A DNA stretch of 64,000 nucleotides, taken from the IMG/VR virus record IMGVR_UViG_2061766007_002263, one strand, 5' to 3'. A program made the position numbers and the translations under genes. Each line of letters starts with the position of its first letter. Positions within the stretch are counted from its first letter, which is position 1. Below, one piece after another: positions 19,621-42,682 of this stretch. This DNA is from a virus. Taxonomy: Duplodnaviria; Caudoviricetes. The notes beneath the pieces were generated by a model. It saw only the letters and a list, made by a program, of their open reading frames with translations, was not told the DNA's origin and made no database searches.

Positions 19621-19786
19621 TCTTTTTACTCCATATATCTGGCATTTTAGCCACACGAGGTTTTTAATGCGTATTTTCCGGATAAAAAGACATCTATCCC
19701 CTTGTCCAAAAACTACATACTATAATTAGTTAGTGGTAATTCAATTCAAAACTTTAATATCTAAAGATATAAAGGAGAAAAATCTT

Positions 19787-21256
19787 TTGAAATGTCTCGC
19801 ATGCGGTAAAGATTGTAAAAACAAGTTTTGTCATACATGTATGATAATCAAATCAAAAAAGCATTTCTCAGACGACGAGCTTATACAGTTCAAAAAGCTC
19901 AAAGAATCAAAGATATCAAGCGTAAACGAGCTCAACAACAAGCTTTTTCAAAAGAATACCGTAATAAAGTTCAATTGCATAAAATGTGGCAAAGAATATT
20001 CCGGTCTATATCGTAACATGAAAAACAAAACTGAGCTTCTGTGTGCGCAGTGCGAGCTTGAGAAAGCCAACATGAACAAATATGGCGTGAAAAATGTTTT
20101 TCAGACTGAATCATGCAAATCAAAGATACGCGAGTCAGTAAAAAACAAATACGGAGTCGAGTGTTACCTGCAAACAGACGAAGCAAGAAAAGCAAGGAAA
20201 CGAGTCGATATAGACCACATGAAAGAACGCACCGACAATACGCTCAATCAATACTGCTCCAAGATAGAATATGACGAAACATACAATGTACGTATCAAAG
20301 ACGACTCAGGCATGCTGCATTATCAGAAAATAAACTGCACGTGCGCGTCTTGTGGAAAACAATATATTACGAATGTAAGGGTTCTACAAAGATGCCCTGC
20401 TTGTTTCCCTGAAGATTGGATGAACGGTACGTCCAAACTTGAAAAGTTTATCTACGAATACATATCCGGCATAAGCCCATACCCCGTAATACATAACGCA
20501 TTCGATGTATTGAAAAACAAAGAGCTCGACATCTACATACCGGACATTAACCTCGCATTTGAAGTTGACGGAGATTACTGGCATGGATGCAAATCAACCG
20601 ACAAACAAGTTTTCAACGATATAAAGAATCATTCCGGCGACAAGCAGAAAGAATGCTATAAGAAAGGCATCCGGCTCATAACAATAAAGGAGTGTGATTT
20701 CAGGAACCGACCCGAAGTATTCAAAAGGTTTATAAATGATTTGGTGCTGCCACGAAGAAAAATATACGCGAGGCAATGCAGCATTTACCAGATTGATACA
20801 AAAACCGCAAGGGATTTCTGCGAATATTACCATGTGAACGGCTACAGACAAGGTTCTGAAAAGTATGGATTATTCTATAACAATGAGCTGATATGCGTCG
20901 CCGTATTCGGAAAACATCCTAAGCACCAATACGAATGCATGCGATTATGCTACAAGACCGGCTACGACATAACCGGCGGATGGGCTAAAATTGTCAAGCA
21001 TTTTGGAAAACCTTTCATACACTACGTGAACCTTATGTATTTCATGGGCGAAGACAAAACAGGCATAGGGTACAGATTTAGTAAAGGCGACAGGACTCTA
21101 TCCAGGAACACATTACAAAAGCATACACAGCTTTATAAGTATTGCAAGGACATAAACCCGGATTTCTCGGACGTACAGAACTGCATTCATAACGGTTTCC
21201 TCGCTATATTCGACTGTGGAAACGACATAAGATTCTATAACCAGAGCAAGAATTAA
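19787..21256 (+). CDS. Hef-like free-standing homing endonuclease (Zn ribbons, KYGV repeats, PD-(D/E)XK-type nuclease)
   Basis: CxxC pairs, KYGVKNVFQ, ELDIYIP...FEVDGDYWH, RKIYARQC domain; AAGGAG RBS before TTG 19787. Confidence 0.7.
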   Translation: MKCLACGKDCKNKFCHTCMIIKSKKHFSDDELIQFKKLKESKISSVNELNNKLFQKNTVIKFNCIKCGKEYSGLYRNMKNKTELLCAQCELEKANMNKYGVKNVFQTESCKSKIRESVKNKYGVECYLQTDEARKARKRVDIDHMKERTDNTLNQYCSKIEYDETYNVRIKDDSGMLHYQKINCTCASCGKQYITNVRVLQRCPACFPEDWMNGTSKLEKFIYEYISGISPYPVIHNAFDVLKNKELDIYIPDINLAFEVDGDYWHGCKSTDKQVFNDIKNHSGDKQKECYKKGIRLITIKECDFRNRPEVFKRFINDLVLPRRKIYARQCSIYQIDTKTARDFCEYYHVNGYRQGSEKYGLFYNNELICVAVFGKHPKHQYECMRLCYKTGYDITGGWAKIVKHFGKPFIHYVNLMYFMGEDKTGIGYRFSKGDRTLSRNTLQKHTQLYKYCKDINPDFSDVQNCIHNGFLAIFDCGNDIRFYNQSKN

Positions 21257-37581: not shown

Positions 37582-38124
37582 TTATACCGTTTTTTCTTTC
37601 TTTTCTTTCAAAGGGGGCGTTACGTCCACCAGCTCGCCTTTAACGTTGCGCTTAAAAATCCTCTGGTTGCTGCTGCCCCGTAATTTAAGGGTAATATCCC
37701 TGAGCTCCTGCACGAACCTTCCCTCGACAAGATAATCCACTTTGCTAAGCGCAAGGTTTATGTCCTCGTCACCGGCATCACGAAGCTCCTCTATAGTATA
37801 CCCGGACCATAAATAAATCCTTATAGAAGGACATTTCTCCTTTATACGGTTTATAATGTATGCGACACCTTTACGATTCCAAGGTGCCATCGGCTCACCT
37901 CCAAGTATAGAAAAGCATCTCTCCATACCGTTCCTATGTATCGCACGAAGTATGCGTGTAGTAAGTCCGTCCAAGTCTGTGCATTCCGTACCGGTCTCTT
38001 TGTCCCAATACTGCGCATTCTGACATCCCGGACATTTAAAATTACATCCCGCCGTCCATAAGGACACTGCAAAACCGTCCACTGAATCTACTATGTCGTT
38101 TGTTTTTAATGCGACCAAATACAT
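37582..38124 (-). CDS. nrdG: anaerobic ribonucleotide reductase activase
   Basis: GCNFKCPGCQN radical-SAM motif, LGGEP, DYLVEGRF, RGSSNQR. Confidence 0.95.
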   Translation of the reverse strand: MYLVALKTNDIVDSVDGFAVSLWTAGCNFKCPGCQNAQYWDKETGTECTDLDGLTTRILRAIHRNGMERCFSILGGEPMAPWNRKGVAYIINRIKEKCPSIRIYLWSGYTIEELRDAGDEDINLALSKVDYLVEGRFVQELRDITLKLRGSSNQRIFKRNVKGELVDVTPPLKEKKEKTV

Positions 38125-38269: not shown

Positions 38270-39442
38270 TTACGCTCTTTTTCTAAACCCGGCAAGATAA
38301 CCTTTGCCATAAGTTATGTTTATATAATCAAGATACAATTTTATATCATTCTTTCGAATAAACCTTACGCCGTTTTTAAGCCCGCACTGACGTTTCGCCT
38401 CAAACATACCGTCTTTTGAAGGGTCATAAGGATTCCGCATCGTACCGTTCTCATTAAAGAACTGGTCGCCTTTTATTTCTATAAGCTCACCGTTCAGCCG
38501 GAAATCCGGAAAATAATAATGCCTCTCACCGTCGTACTCATATTCTAACCTCACCGGCTCACGTTCTATTATCATGTCATGGTCAACCGCATAAATCCAT
38601 ACCGCAAGCTCCCATTTGCTGTCGAACCGCATACCGTTATAATCATACCTCGCATATGCCCTTCTCCTAAGTTCAACAGATTGCGACGGGTTCTCAACAC
38701 CATATCTTTCCACACAAGTTCTGCTTGACTTCTCCTTAAAATCATCCGTAAGCCAGTAATGCTTACCATAGATGCCTTCAAAAATCTCCGACTGCTTCTT
38801 CAGAGCCCTGCATTTTATCGGCTCATAAAGCATCGGATGCTCAACGCCGTATCTTTCCATACATGTTTCTTTGTTACGCTCAGGATTGTTAAAATTCTCG
38901 TCCCCATACCGCTCCAGTTTAGTCCGTTTTATTTTTGAAACTATGTTCTCAAGGTGTTCACCATATCTCGCGCGTTTTGTATCTATGACTTTCACGACAA
39001 GCTCCTCAGATTGCAAAGTGGTCGGAGCCCCGTACCTTTCATTCATTGTCTGACGGGCTTTCTCGGAATTGCTGTAATTCTCGTCGCCATATTTCTCCAG
39101 CTTGGTTTTCTTCGCTTTCACCATAAGCTCCTTGGACTTAAACGCATTGTCCACACCAAACTTACGGGTCATCGTGTCTTTAGCTTTGGTCTGTATGTAT
39201 TCAAGATATTTGTCAAACGAGCCATACTTTTTGTCTATTGACTCGTGTCTCTTTCTGTTTGATTCCAGTTTCTGCTCGCTTGTCCTTTTGGATTTGCCGT
39301 CCTTTATATTGCATTCGGCACAATACAACTGATGCTTGGTAGATTTTCTGAATTCCTTTTCCGTCAATTTTCCACATCCTTGACAATAAAAAGACACACG
39401 TGACGGAAATTTCAAAATTTCATCATAAGATTCTATAAACAT
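38270..39442 (-). CDS. free-standing homing-endonuclease-like protein (Zn ribbon, about 8 (K/R)YG repeats, PD-(D/E)XK domain)
   Basis: CQGCG, KYGDEN/RYGVEN repeats, FDSKWE...YFPDF...IEIKG. Confidence 0.75.
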   Translation of the reverse strand: MFIESYDEILKFPSRVSFYCQGCGKLTEKEFRKSTKHQLYCAECNIKDGKSKRTSEQKLESNRKRHESIDKKYGSFDKYLEYIQTKAKDTMTRKFGVDNAFKSKELMVKAKKTKLEKYGDENYSNSEKARQTMNERYGAPTTLQSEELVVKVIDTKRARYGEHLENIVSKIKRTKLERYGDENFNNPERNKETCMERYGVEHPMLYEPIKCRALKKQSEIFEGIYGKHYWLTDDFKEKSSRTCVERYGVENPSQSVELRRRAYARYDYNGMRFDSKWELAVWIYAVDHDMIIEREPVRLEYEYDGERHYYFPDFRLNGELIEIKGDQFFNENGTMRNPYDPSKDGMFEAKRQCGLKNGVRFIRKNDIKLYLDYINITYGKGYLAGFRKRA

Positions 39443-39523
39443 ATGTATCAATTAGAAGCTTAAAATAGAAAACGGCGAACAACACCGTTTTTCATGGCTG
39501 CTCACCGTTTTCATTAAATCTCA

Positions 39524-40075
39524 TCACTCCGGATTGTTATTCCAATCCACCAAAGAACTTGAATGTTTGTATCTGTGATTTACTTCGTCCACCTTTCCTT
39601 CATTGAAAGCGTCGAGGTAGGAACCAGTAAGATAACCGGTAACACGACGCAGACGCTGTATCACACGATGTCCTGGGACGTCATGCGCACCGCATACAGG
39701 GCATTCGTTGTCGATGTTTCCTTGATAACCACATTCAAGGCATGTGTCCGCTGGACAGTTTATTGCGAAATATGGAATATCTTTCTCCATCGCATAGTCT
39801 ACAATTTGCTCCAATGCCTTAAGATTGTTCTGCGTTCTATCATCAAGCTCGACATACGTAATACATCCTGCATTCGAATATCCGGTAAGCTGACTCTCAA
39901 TGTCAATCTTTTCAAACGGGTCTATTTTCGTCCAGACCGGAACATGCATGGAGTTTGTGAAAAACTGCCTGTAATCTTTCTTGTCCGAACCTTCAATATC
40001 CGAATATGTAACGTCCTTTATCTCACCGTATTTCGCACGGAACTTTTTCATCGCTGTATAACAAAGACTTTCAGC
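39524..40075 (-). CDS. nrdD: NrdD part B, exon 3 (AESLCY...glycyl-radical loop)
   Basis: FFTNSMHVPV, NAGCITYVE, CLECG/CPVCG, RRVTGYL. Confidence 0.9.
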   Translation of the reverse strand, partial: AESLCYTAMKKFRAKYGEIKDVTYSDIEGSDKKDYRQFFTNSMHVPVWTKIDPFEKIDIESQLTGYSNAGCITYVELDDRTQNNLKALEQIVDYAMEKDIPYFAINCPADTCLECGYQGNIDNECPVCGAHDVPGHRVIQRLRRVTGYLTGSYLDAFNEGKVDEVNHRYKHSSSLVDWNNNPE

Positions 40076-40371
40076 CGTTAAACCTAAAAACTTTCGTTAA
40101 TAGCCAGACTATATTTTCATCTTTTAATTCTTTTACCAAATTAAAAGCGCCTCTCATTTCGCTAAGATTATTAGCTACTCTACTCATTTATTCATTTAAG
40201 TATTTCACTTAAACTATACTTTCGATAGTCGTTAGAGTCACCCAAAAAGCTTTGGGCTTCCTACGGGGTTAGCTTGCTCTTGTTTAGCCTTTCTTACCAG
40301 ATTATTACTCTTCGCCCGTTTAGAGAGGGATTTTCATTTGTTGTCACCAACAAAGCACCCACTTAAAATCT
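40076..40371 (-). ncRNA. group I intron 2 in nrdD (296 nt, no ORF)
   Basis: YYTP|AESL restored in frame; exon ends U, intron ends G; P1 CACCU/GGGUG; P7 GACUAU/AUAGUC with AAAAUAUAGUC S element; P10 pairing. Confidence 0.9.
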
Positions 40372-40932
40372 AGGTGTATAATAAACTCCAAAATTAAGTT
40401 TATATTCTTCTTTGAACTCCGCGCATCTTTTTTTGAAAAGACCCTCAATCTTCTTGGCGACTTCCATACCTTTCTCGGTTGTCTGGTCACATCCTACAAG
40501 AAGCTGCAATGTCTCCGCCAAGCCAAGCTGACCTATTACGAGTGTACCGTGCTTGAGCGCGGAACGGATTCCTTCCTCTTCCCTATAACCATACATAGTA
40601 CCGTTTTCATACATGAACTTCGCCGAGTTCTTGTTCTGTGCCGCTATCCAGTTGTATCTTTCTAGCAGACCGTCCTTACAATCATGTATGGCTTTGTCAA
40701 GTATATCCATAAAACAGTCCACAAATAAATCCGGATTGTTCTTGGCTTTTTTCCTGGCTTCCATAGCCAAAGTAGGAAGAATTATCGTAGCCGGAGCGAG
40801 GTTTCCCCGTCCGTCTTTCTGCTGTCCTGTAGCAAGAAAATTATATTCCGGAATCTTGCCGTCAATCACGCTGTTGACAGCTTTAACCCACTCGTCATAC
40901 CAGTTTACATCAAAACCATTGGCTGTTCTACA
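40372..40932 (-). CDS. nrdD: NrdD part B, exon 2 (CRTANG...YYTP)
   Basis: Catalytic CRT, GRGNLAP, IGQLGLAE. Confidence 0.9.
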
Positions 40933-41190
40933 CATATTTATCTTATGTCACCATAAGCACTGACTATATCTTCTACTTTTCAGTAGTCTTCCGCTTCGAA
41001 CTGGCGCTTATCTCCAGCCCTACTCCGCTACATTCATCACGGATAGTCGATACAGGTTCTTGGTTTCCCAAGCTTCCCACGGTCTCATCTTGCAAATCTT
41101 ACAAGACCTAACCGTTAGCAGACTCTTTTTCAGAATCCACACCCCTTAAGCAGGGTTCAAAAGATTTTAGATGAGCTGTAGTTTACACTT
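40933..41190 (-). ncRNA. group I intron 1 in nrdD (258 nt, no ORF)
   Basis: MG|CRT restored in frame; exon ends U, intron ends G; P1 GAUGGGU/GCUCAUC; P10 CUACA/UGUAG; GACUA and AAGAUAUAGUC core elements. Confidence 0.92.
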
Positions 41191-41799
41191 ACCCATCGTT
41201 GAAAAGATTGCGGCCGGCGCATTCTTTTCAGGAACAATTTTTAGCTTCTTTGCGTCCTCTACAAGCTCCAAGCCCAAACGGTCTGACAAGCCCTTGTTGT
41301 TTTTAAGCATTCCTATAAGGCTCGACATTTTTTCGTCGCTCAATTCCCCCAAGAAATCTTCCTTAAGAGCATAGGATTTACTGTCGTCATTTCCTGACCA
41401 ATCACAATTCGCATAGTTCGGATAAAGACGCTTTGAGGTGGATTTCAATGCCAGCTTATAAAGGTCATAATTCTTGCTGCCCTTGTCATTCACACCTTTC
41501 ATTTTCTGAAAGATGCCACAAGGGAAAATAGAAGTCCTATGAAGCTTTCCAACGCCATCAATAGAAACATTCAAAATAGCTTTCGTTACCATACGCCCTT
41601 CCGGAAGCGTACAAGTTCCGTAATTAATAGATGAAAAAGGAAGCTGGTTACCCGACCTGCTTTGCAAGCTATTGAGGTTATGATAAAGGCCTTCCGTAGC
41701 TTGGTATACTTCTTTTTCCAACATAGCTAGAGCGTACTGATACGCTTTCTCATGCGCTTTATAACGCTTATCTTTAATAGATACTTCTTCTATCCCCAT
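41191..41799 (-). CDS. nrdD: NrdD part B, exon 1
   Basis: HNLNSLQSRSGNQLPFSSINYG, IFPCGIF, RLYPNY, STMG; own GAGG RBS. Confidence 0.9.
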
Positions 41800-41815
41800 A
41801 GTATTTTCCTCTTGT

Positions 41816-42682
41816 TTATTCTCCTTTTATGTCTTTTATGAAGCTTTCTATTTCTTCGTCAGACAAGCCTTCCACGTATTTAAGTCCGTCCTTAAAATGC
41901 TTAAGAAATGATTTTCTTACATAAGGAACCATACTCCAGTCGATGTGCGTCGCCGAAACGCCCCCGAACTGCTGCAATGACTGAAGCTGAAACAATACCG
42001 CTACGAGCTGCATGGCTGTATTGACTGAACCGGCAGGACGGATATCAACTTGTCTTGTGTTGAATCCTTTGGACAATAAATCATCTATCGGAACCGAGAG
42101 ACAGTTATGACATCCGATTACATACGAATCCAGGTCGTGTATATAGATTCTGTTGTCGATATGATTCTTGGCGAATTTCGGGCTTATGTAATAATCCAAT
42201 GCCATCTGCTTCAGAAGCTCGCTGTCTGCCTCACCTTTACGACCTCCGAAAGAGTTCTCGTCAAGATTGGCATTCTGGTTCTGAACATCAGACGCATCAA
42301 GCTTTGTCTTGATACGTTTCATTATGTCAAGACGCTTGAACCGTTCCTTAGCCCGCTCATTGCGATAAAGGATAAAAGCTTTGGCAACGTCATAGCAGTT
42401 TTTGTTCTGAAGACCTTTCTCAACAAGGTCCTGAATCTCCTCGACGTTTACCTGGAAAGCTTCTCGTTCATCCTCTGGTTTTTTAAGCTGTTCCTTTTCG
42501 AAAGACTCCTTGTTCTTCTCAAGGGTTTTCGTTACGAACTCCAGTACTTTTTGAATCTGCTCGTCGGTGATTCGGTGTTCCAGACTCACCGCGTTGTTGG
42601 CGGCACTGATAGCGTTTATAATGTTTTTTTCCTTAAAATCTACACGCTTGCCGTCCCTTTTTACAACTTTTGTGTTTTCCAT
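41816..42682 (-). CDS. nrdD: NrdD part A (ATP cone plus N-terminal catalytic region)
   Basis: VVKRDG, VEEIQDLVE, IYIHDLD, HNCL, QQFGG. Confidence 0.9.
   Translation of the reverse strand: MENTKVVKRDGKRVDFKEKNIINAISAANNAVSLEHRITDEQIQKVLEFVTKTLEKNKESFEKEQLKKPEDEREAFQVNVEEIQDLVEKGLQNKNCYDVAKAFILYRNERAKERFKRLDIMKRIKTKLDASDVQNQNANLDENSFGGRKGEADSELLKQMALDYYISPKFAKNHIDNRIYIHDLDSYVIGCHNCLSVPIDDLLSKGFNTRQVDIRPAGSVNTAMQLVAVLFQLQSLQQFGGVSATHIDWSMVPYVRKSFLKHFKDGLKYVEGLSDEEIESFIKDIKGE

Follow-up and report, generated by a model that had tools for sequence, protein, structure and literature searches.

In Aeromonas phage Aeh1 the class Ia ribonucleotide reductase (RNR) is encoded by genes in pieces, in the order nrdA-a, mobE and nrdA-b (Friedrich et al. 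2007, as presented in PMC3653736). NrdA-a and NrdA-b, whose genes are split by mobE, give an active enzyme that cannot do without the tails generated by the insertion (Crona et al. 2010, PMC3045599; PMC3653736). In Thermus phage phiYS40 a class II RNR is split into nrdJa and nrdJb with an intergenic gap of 12 nt, while the nrdD of Aeromonas phage phiAS4 consists of several ORFs separated by short overlaps or gaps and without intein; this last case concerns a single genome, fragmented for no identified cause, which shares 97% identity with an uninterrupted relative (PMC3653736). The nrdD gene of T4 carries a group I intron (PMC3653736), and the class III enzymes NrdD of T4, Prevotella copri and Streptococcus thermophilus (PDB 1H78, 8P23 and 9D3X) are single polypeptides. 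A conserved NrdD made of two chains was not found in the literature searched.

The nrdD described here, which codes for the oxygen-sensitive, anaerobic enzyme of DNA-precursor synthesis, belongs to an uncultured phage and lies on the minus strand of the window, the whole stretch of 64,000 nucleotides that was analysed. As the original prediction had proposed, it is organized as two separately translated ORFs, chain A and chain B, each with its own stop, ribosome-binding site and start. Chain B is in turn interrupted, and its exon borders were set by aligning the intron-less B chain (508 aa) of a related locus, L162, which gave three blocks (41799-41191, 40932-40372 and 40075-39527). The elements of the locus, in the order of transcription, are the following:

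41819..42682, minus strand: NrdD chain A coding sequence, 288 aa (ORF; Pfam and PDB matches)
41816..41818, minus strand: chain A stop codon TAA (sequence; the DIKGE C-terminus is also present in variants P0002-P0004)
41800..41815, minus strand: spacer of 16 nt, ACAAGAGGAAAATACT, holding the ribosome-binding site AGAGG (sequence)
41191..41799, minus strand: chain B exon 1, 203 codons, from ATG 41799 to STMG plus a final T (L162 alignment; Pfam NRDD 129-248)
40933..41190, minus strand: group I intron 1, 258 nt, without ORF, between MG and CR, directly before the finger-loop catalytic Cys codon (Rfam Intron_gpI)
40372..40932, minus strand: chain B exon 2, 187 codons, CRTANG to YYTP (L162 alignment; Pfam NRDD 272-414)
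40076..40371, minus strand: group I intron 2, 296 nt, without ORF, between YTP and AE (Rfam Intron_gpI)
39524..40075, minus strand: chain B exon 3, 183 codons plus stop, with zinc ribbon and glycyl-radical motif RRVTGYL (Pfam NRDD 426-562)
38270..39451, minus strand: free-standing endonuclease-like gene, 393 aa, with DUF7487 repeats, between nrdD and nrdG (Pfam DUF7487 E 1.1e-27; phrog_3339 E 2.6e-16)
37582..38124, minus strand: nrdG, radical SAM activase (Pfam Fer4_12 E 7.9e-33)

The 3′ end of chain A reads AAA GAC ATA AAA GGA GAA TAA, with the final sense codon GAA at 41821-41819, and chain B starts with ATG GGG ATA GAA at 41799, in frame +1 with respect to chain A. The sequence hence agrees with the predicted end of part A (DIKGE-TAA at 41816) and with the restart of part B, 16 nt further on, in another frame. 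The B frame is shut upstream by a TAA at 41829-41827 and ATG 41799 is the first start after that stop, so that chain B cannot begin upstream of this position. The AGAGG motif that had been expected ahead of the ATG is present at 41812-41808; only its spacing, given as seven nucleotides, was trivially miscounted, and is eight. A scan for promoters and terminators between A and B found none on the coding (minus) strand. Neither a group I intron nor an intein was found at the break, the only Rfam matches being located at 40941-41216 and 40085-40381, and since just 16 nt separate stop and start there is no space for either element, as had been argued beforehand. The assignment of the break to a variable segment was likewise borne out: in 78 continuous relatives from IMG/VR the distance between the conserved blocks that flank this hypervariable loop ranges from -12 to +198 nt. 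According to PDB searches, the break falls between the residues aligned to ~154 and ~158 of T4 NrdD, and to ~253 and ~276 of P. copri NrdD. The two cysteine motifs of the active site end up on different chains, also as foreseen, HNCL (with a Cys invariant among split A chains) on chain A and GCR, with intron 1 between the G and the CR, on chain B.

Chain A contains an ATP-cone (Pfam, E 1.6e-17) followed by the first part of the catalytic barrel, including the HNCL cysteine (NRDD profile positions 2-139, E 6.6e-27), and matches the NrdD structures 8p23 and 9d3x. Exon 1 of chain B is 78% identical to the L162 B chain. The Rfam Intron_gpI matches of both introns remain under the gathering score (E 3.3e-4 for intron 1, and a weak E 0.2 for intron 2); in both cases the exon ends in U and the intron in G, and protein alignment across the borders restores MG-CRT and YTP-AESL, respectively. 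Exon 3 displays a CxxC...CxxC zinc ribbon, and its matches to Pfam NRDD 426-562 (E 6.5e-41) and Gly_radical (E 1.5e-11) are strong. After splicing chain B has 573 aa, and Pfam PF13597 (NRDD) is covered end to end by four pieces (2-139, 129-248, 272-414 and 426-562). The hallmarks of a class III NrdD are all present: an ATP-cone, two active-site cysteines, a C-terminal zinc ribbon, the glycyl-radical motif and a nearby nrdG. The fold and motifs are thus those of the one-chain enzymes of T4, P. copri and S. thermophilus, from which the enzyme of the window differs in not being a single polypeptide. With nrdJ of phiYS40 it shares the layout of two consecutive ORFs for one RNR catalytic subunit, a very short spacer and nothing inserted, and differs from it in the RNR class, in the break point and in that no link to an endonuclease is reported for phiYS40 in PMC3653736. 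As a separate feature, exon 1 contains, at 41380-41200 (minus strand) and just before the STMG-CR finger loop, an insertion of ~50 residues, roughly ALKEDFLGELSDEK...EKNAPAAI, that is missing from the L162 B chain.

The locus gave no match by megablast against GenBank phages. Its best protein-level relative, Thomasclavelia phage TR-TP1 (51%), was discarded as an instance of the same break because its HNH-bearing insert is placed at the GCR site and not at the loop. At the site of the break 78 of 80 relatives from IMG/VR (49-69% identity) read through. The same split was nevertheless found when sought more widely. A search of 5.8 billion proteins gave many chain-A-like proteins of 259-304 aa, and among the best 120 chain A homologues, 114 of them classifiable, 21 stop 24-36 residues after the PYVRKSF motif. 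Most of these split A chains come from the protein database, their stops being inferred from the protein ends; several of the 21 are located on contigs of 40-103 kb, so that contig ends do not account for the stops. B chains beginning at the loop, obtained in a profile-free search with chain B, form at least seven clusters at 50% identity. At the DNA level, scanning GTDB genomes and JGI metagenomes contributed 160 further loci, for a total of 241, of which 222 are continuous at the site, six end ahead of an assessable chain B and five have a true two-ORF layout (L162, L108, L180, L188 and L200). Every B chain in the two-ORF loci has a start codon, most of them with a purine-rich, SD-like stretch upstream, and no group I intron was detected with Rfam at the break of any of the five.

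Some loci that resemble splits were set aside. The apparent stops of L015, L098, L104, L124, L176 and L203 are introns located ~40 codons into chain B. L156 and L186 have an in-frame TAG at the loop, probably as a result of stop-codon reassignment, and were left out of the split count. The in-frame TAG codons of nrdD lie at L186:3930-4160 and L156:5700-5860; in L186 a second one falls within a conserved block, and the ORFs of both loci become longer if TAG is read as sense, which points to phages with a probably reassigned TAG. In the short locus L044 (5800-5830) precisely this loop carries an in-frame TGA, with an ATG 15 nt further on; either a further split or reassignment of TGA could account for it. 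The frame changes in the C-terminal part of nrdD in L010, L013, L014 and L064, three of which come from sample 3300045988, look like assembly indels rather than biology.

The content of the break differs among the five loci: three carry a homing-endonuclease gene of the phrog_3339 family, one a decayed remnant and one a short spacer. In L162, whose chain A is 68% identical to that of the window, chain A is followed after 1 nt by a 498-aa phrog_3339 endonuclease ORF (E 2.5e-110) and, after a further 4 nt, by the intron-less chain B. L108 and L180 have homologous endonucleases in the same place, with 38-44% identity to one another and to that of L162; the phrog_3339 matches of the three range from E 2.5e-110 to 2.5e-36. 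L188, whose A chain is sister to that of L180, retains only short remnants of the endonuclease gene, and L200 has a 47-nt spacer with a GTG start for chain B. No homing-endonuclease gene is present between the nrdD halves of the window, where there are only 16 nt. The spacer and B start of the window do align at the DNA level with L162, over the 3′ end of its endonuclease gene and the B start that follows, and the run AATACTATGG is common to both, being located in L162 at the 3′ end of the endonuclease gene. This suggests that a deletion took out the endonuclease gene in the window, the aligned stretch being too short for proof. The comparison of L180, with an intact endonuclease, and L188, with remnants of one next to a sister A chain, indicates decay in place, and favours such a loss also in the window.

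Two other genes of the window are related to these endonucleases. The product of the gene between nrdD and nrdG has a nuclease-like domain besides its DUF7487 repeats and gives a weak BLASTP match to the L162 endonuclease, being a distant kin of the endonucleases resident in the break of other phages; it might act on the introns, which have no ORF of their own, or on the A/B site. In addition, a full-length free-standing endonuclease gene of 507 aa, homologous to the L162 break endonuclease (30% over 314 aa, tblastn E 4.7e-33), is found at 19733-21256 on the plus strand, flanked by ORFs of 869 and 246 aa that are both on the opposite strand. The break-type endonuclease family is therefore present elsewhere in the genome of this phage.

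The distribution of the break among relatives is patchy. On a maximum-likelihood tree of the A region, built with the tail left out, the split and continuous states change 15 times, and at least 10 of these changes are forced by well-supported branches. Near-identical A regions can be in opposite states (P0012 and P0026; P0097 and P0086). The sequences flanking the break have affinities of their own. In sliding-window comparison the ATP-cone of L162 is ~93% identical to that of the continuous L163 and L164, whereas the ~200 residues around its break are closer to the window (85-93%). Conversely, the window is 80% identical to the continuous P0009, save for ~70 residues at the break that match only L162. 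As judged from these identities, the flanks of the break are inherited as a mosaic cassette, and mosaic flanks are the pattern expected of co-conversion during endonuclease-driven homing. The tail helix of chain A is associated with the split state as well: the motif [ST][DE]x[EK]I was found in 21 of 21 split A chains and in 10 of the 93 continuous ones (Fisher p 1e-15, for a pattern picked after inspection of the data and with the sequences treated without regard to phylogeny).

On this basis, we consider it very likely that the locus encodes a true gene-in-pieces class III reductase of two chains, whose break was caused by insertion of a phrog_3339 endonuclease gene that has probably since been lost. 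Several other explanations have to be weighed against it. A one-base error in a short A run might have broken a continuous nrdD: the frames differ by +1, the sole homopolymer near the break is an A4 (41828-41825), one A fewer in it would fuse the frames, and the large majority of the IMG/VR relatives, as stated above, are continuous at the site. However, an A4 is not error-prone for short reads, and the exact 288-aa chain A was found by look-up on two contigs. The Logan/ENA assemblies contain two more variants of 288 aa, each with two substitutions, and a copy truncated at the N-terminus, all of them ending in DIKGE, and four other contigs have a called B chain that begins MGIEEVSIKD. Stop and restart are thus the same in at least three sequence variants from separate assemblies; the presence of three chain A variants in independent assemblies indicates that the break is not an assembly error, and the architecture is shared by diverged relatives whose halves lie 47 nt to 1.8 kb apart. 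We regard an artefact as exceedingly improbable. The same low credence is given to recoding, by which a single chain would be produced through a +1 shift, or through a hop from the GAA before the TAA to the GAA within GAGGAA. The site does offer matched GAA codons, a TAA right after the take-off codon, a landing GAA that lies 10 nt further on and is in frame with chain B, and a GAG immediately ahead of it, features that partially recall T4 gene 60 (for the criteria, see bioRxiv 10.1101/2022.08.31.505936). But no stem-loop is found at the take-off site, only a weak long-range pairing (-7.3 kcal/mol, z -2.2), and the GAG abuts the landing codon, while in gene-60-type bypass the mini-SD lies 5-7 nt upstream. 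Chain B, moreover, has an SD and ATG of its own, and relatives with 1.2-1.8 kb between the halves keep the design yet cannot use such a route, as an insert of this length does not allow a single chain to be made by ribosomal slipping. Low-level frameshifting may occur all the same.

A recent inactivation is also very unlikely. Under it, nrdD would be a decaying pseudogene in the lineage of the window and the downstream ATG would be fortuitous, and it is true that phage RNR genes are at times found fragmented for unknown cause, as is the nrdD of phiAS4 (PMC3653736). Against this, all four pieces have open frames in which the motifs of the catalytic Cys, the zinc ribbon and RVTGY are preserved, both introns have canonical ends, nrdG is intact, and the start context of chain B is common to the window and L162. 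Split forms at 52-71% identity retain both halves, with pN far under pS. Between the window and L162 pS is 0.76-0.85, synonymous sites being saturated, and pN stays at 0.13-0.20 across chain A and the three exons of B, which points to purifying selection and, with the retention of the split across lineages, bears indirectly on the activity of the two-chain enzyme; the catalytic residues are invariant among split A chains. The alternative to which we give most room, while still considering it unlikely, concerns the order of events: a frameshift in the loop would have split the gene first and endonucleases would have settled later in the gap, the window then being ancestral and not the product of a loss. 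Free-standing homing endonucleases usually reside between genes, and at the break of the window and of L200 such a gene is missing. In contrast, the sister A chains of L180 and L188 speak for decay in place, and the patchy distribution on the tree together with the mosaic flanks fit spread with a mobile cassette. Such an order would alter only the sequence of events, not the nature of the locus. Locally, the break may have originated by a simple frameshift in a once-continuous allele, in keeping with the fusion of the frames by one base fewer in the A4.

How a barrel could be divided at this point was approached with AF2. For the continuous relative L165, an alignment of 50 sequences yielded a model with a mean pLDDT of 86.7, which superimposes on the NrdD of P. 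copri and T4 with TM 0.78-0.90. The break maps on it to the loop that follows helix 254-266; in 10-residue blocks over 251-270 the pLDDT drops to 72-79, compared with at least 90 on both sides. By this model, chain A would contribute the cone, the next helices, strands 158-160, 172-175 (with the catalytic Cys) and 221-223, and the tail helix, and chain B would supply the finger loop, the zinc ribbon, the radical glycine and the ~7 remaining strands. In a model of chain A by itself the cone is predicted with confidence and a tail helix, SDEEIESFIKDIKGE, is seen at 275-286, while the segments with barrel strands, 176-197 and 235-255, are predicted at pLDDT <50. This is consistent with chain A being a fragment without autonomous fold, which folds only together with chain B.

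Taking into account the above results, we propose the following model for the gene in pieces. The hypervariable surface loop after the short helix would be the homing site of free-standing phrog_3339 endonuclease genes, and the insertion of one of them, with its flanks carried along, would have made the stop and restart signals. The phage of the window has probably lost the endonuclease gene at this site, which would have left two ORFs 16 nt apart. Chain A (288 aa, with no more than the first two or three strands of the barrel) and chain B (573 aa, after removal of the two group I introns) would be produced from one transcript, with chain B translated from its own AGAGG-N8-ATG, whose short distance from the chain A stop would permit coupled translation. 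Both would then co-assemble into one barrel, to be activated by NrdG. Hence, the mature product would be a heteromeric enzyme whose formation needs both RNA splicing and two-chain assembly, as had been suggested at the outset. Assembly and activity of A plus B are inferred, and the heteromeric reading is backed by the same break being kept in many diverged lineages, with intact halves and with start signals of their own.

The proposed system resembles that of Aeh1 in several respects. In both, the catalytic subunit of an RNR is divided between two genes that are translated separately, the point of division is one exploited by a free-standing homing endonuclease, the break is not repaired by RNA or protein splicing, active-site residues are distributed over both chains, and terminal peptide segments are found at the break. 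They differ in that the Aeh1 enzyme is of class Ia and its endonuclease is MobE, whereas here the enzyme is a class III glycyl-radical one and the endonucleases belong to phrog_3339, with DUF7487 repeats and a PD-(D/E)XK-like domain. Furthermore, the break of the window lacks an endonuclease gene, the break recurs in many lineages, and chain B also requires the removal of its two introns. Being recurrent and tied to a homing-endonuclease family, the break is a close analogue of that of Aeh1 and not a one-off; given that no endonuclease gene is present in it, the nrdD of the window is classed, by analogy, as working like the Aeh1 type and as probably derived from it by loss of that gene. From the fragmented nrdD of phiAS4 it is set apart by the conservation of its break across diverged lineages with proper restart signals.

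A broader reading, which we put forward tentatively and hold to be rather less probable than its negation, is that the tail helix of chain A, with its [ST][DE]x[EK]I motif, and the start of chain B constitute a portable split-and-dock cassette that travels with phrog_3339 genes. Three effects are claimed jointly. The cassette would allow the endonuclease to invade the essential glycyl-radical barrel without killing the enzyme; through co-conversion, naive nrdD alleles would acquire the two-chain design; and what remains once the endonuclease is lost would be either stable two-gene enzymes, as in the window, or re-fused chains that keep the helix.

To our knowledge, Aeh1 NrdA is the only endonuclease-fragmented gene shown to yield a functional product in the absence of splicing. 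With a recurrent NrdD of two chains, this solution would reach a glycyl-radical enzyme, with a ten-stranded barrel built from two polypeptides. The relatives would offer a natural series of stages for comparison, with the endonuclease present, decaying, gone or re-fused, and a permissive split site in NrdD would be useful for studies of barrel assembly and radical transfer. In practice, the output of gene callers for such a locus is a set of partial NrdD proteins, and consequently surveys of phage RNRs will miscount these loci.

Further interruptions of chain B are seen among related loci. In P0007, which represents sister strains, the B chain called on the four other contigs is identical to that of the window for 50 residues, then diverges after SRSG and ends. 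The divergence point is where L023 and L061 are interrupted by ~1.1-1.6 kb, and the sister strains may carry a third intron that is absent from the window. In L108 (5800-9900), besides the endonuclease at the break, chain B is interrupted at least twice more, after ~codon 46 and before the GCR cysteine, making this nrdD, located on a 410-kb contig, a heavily invaded allele.
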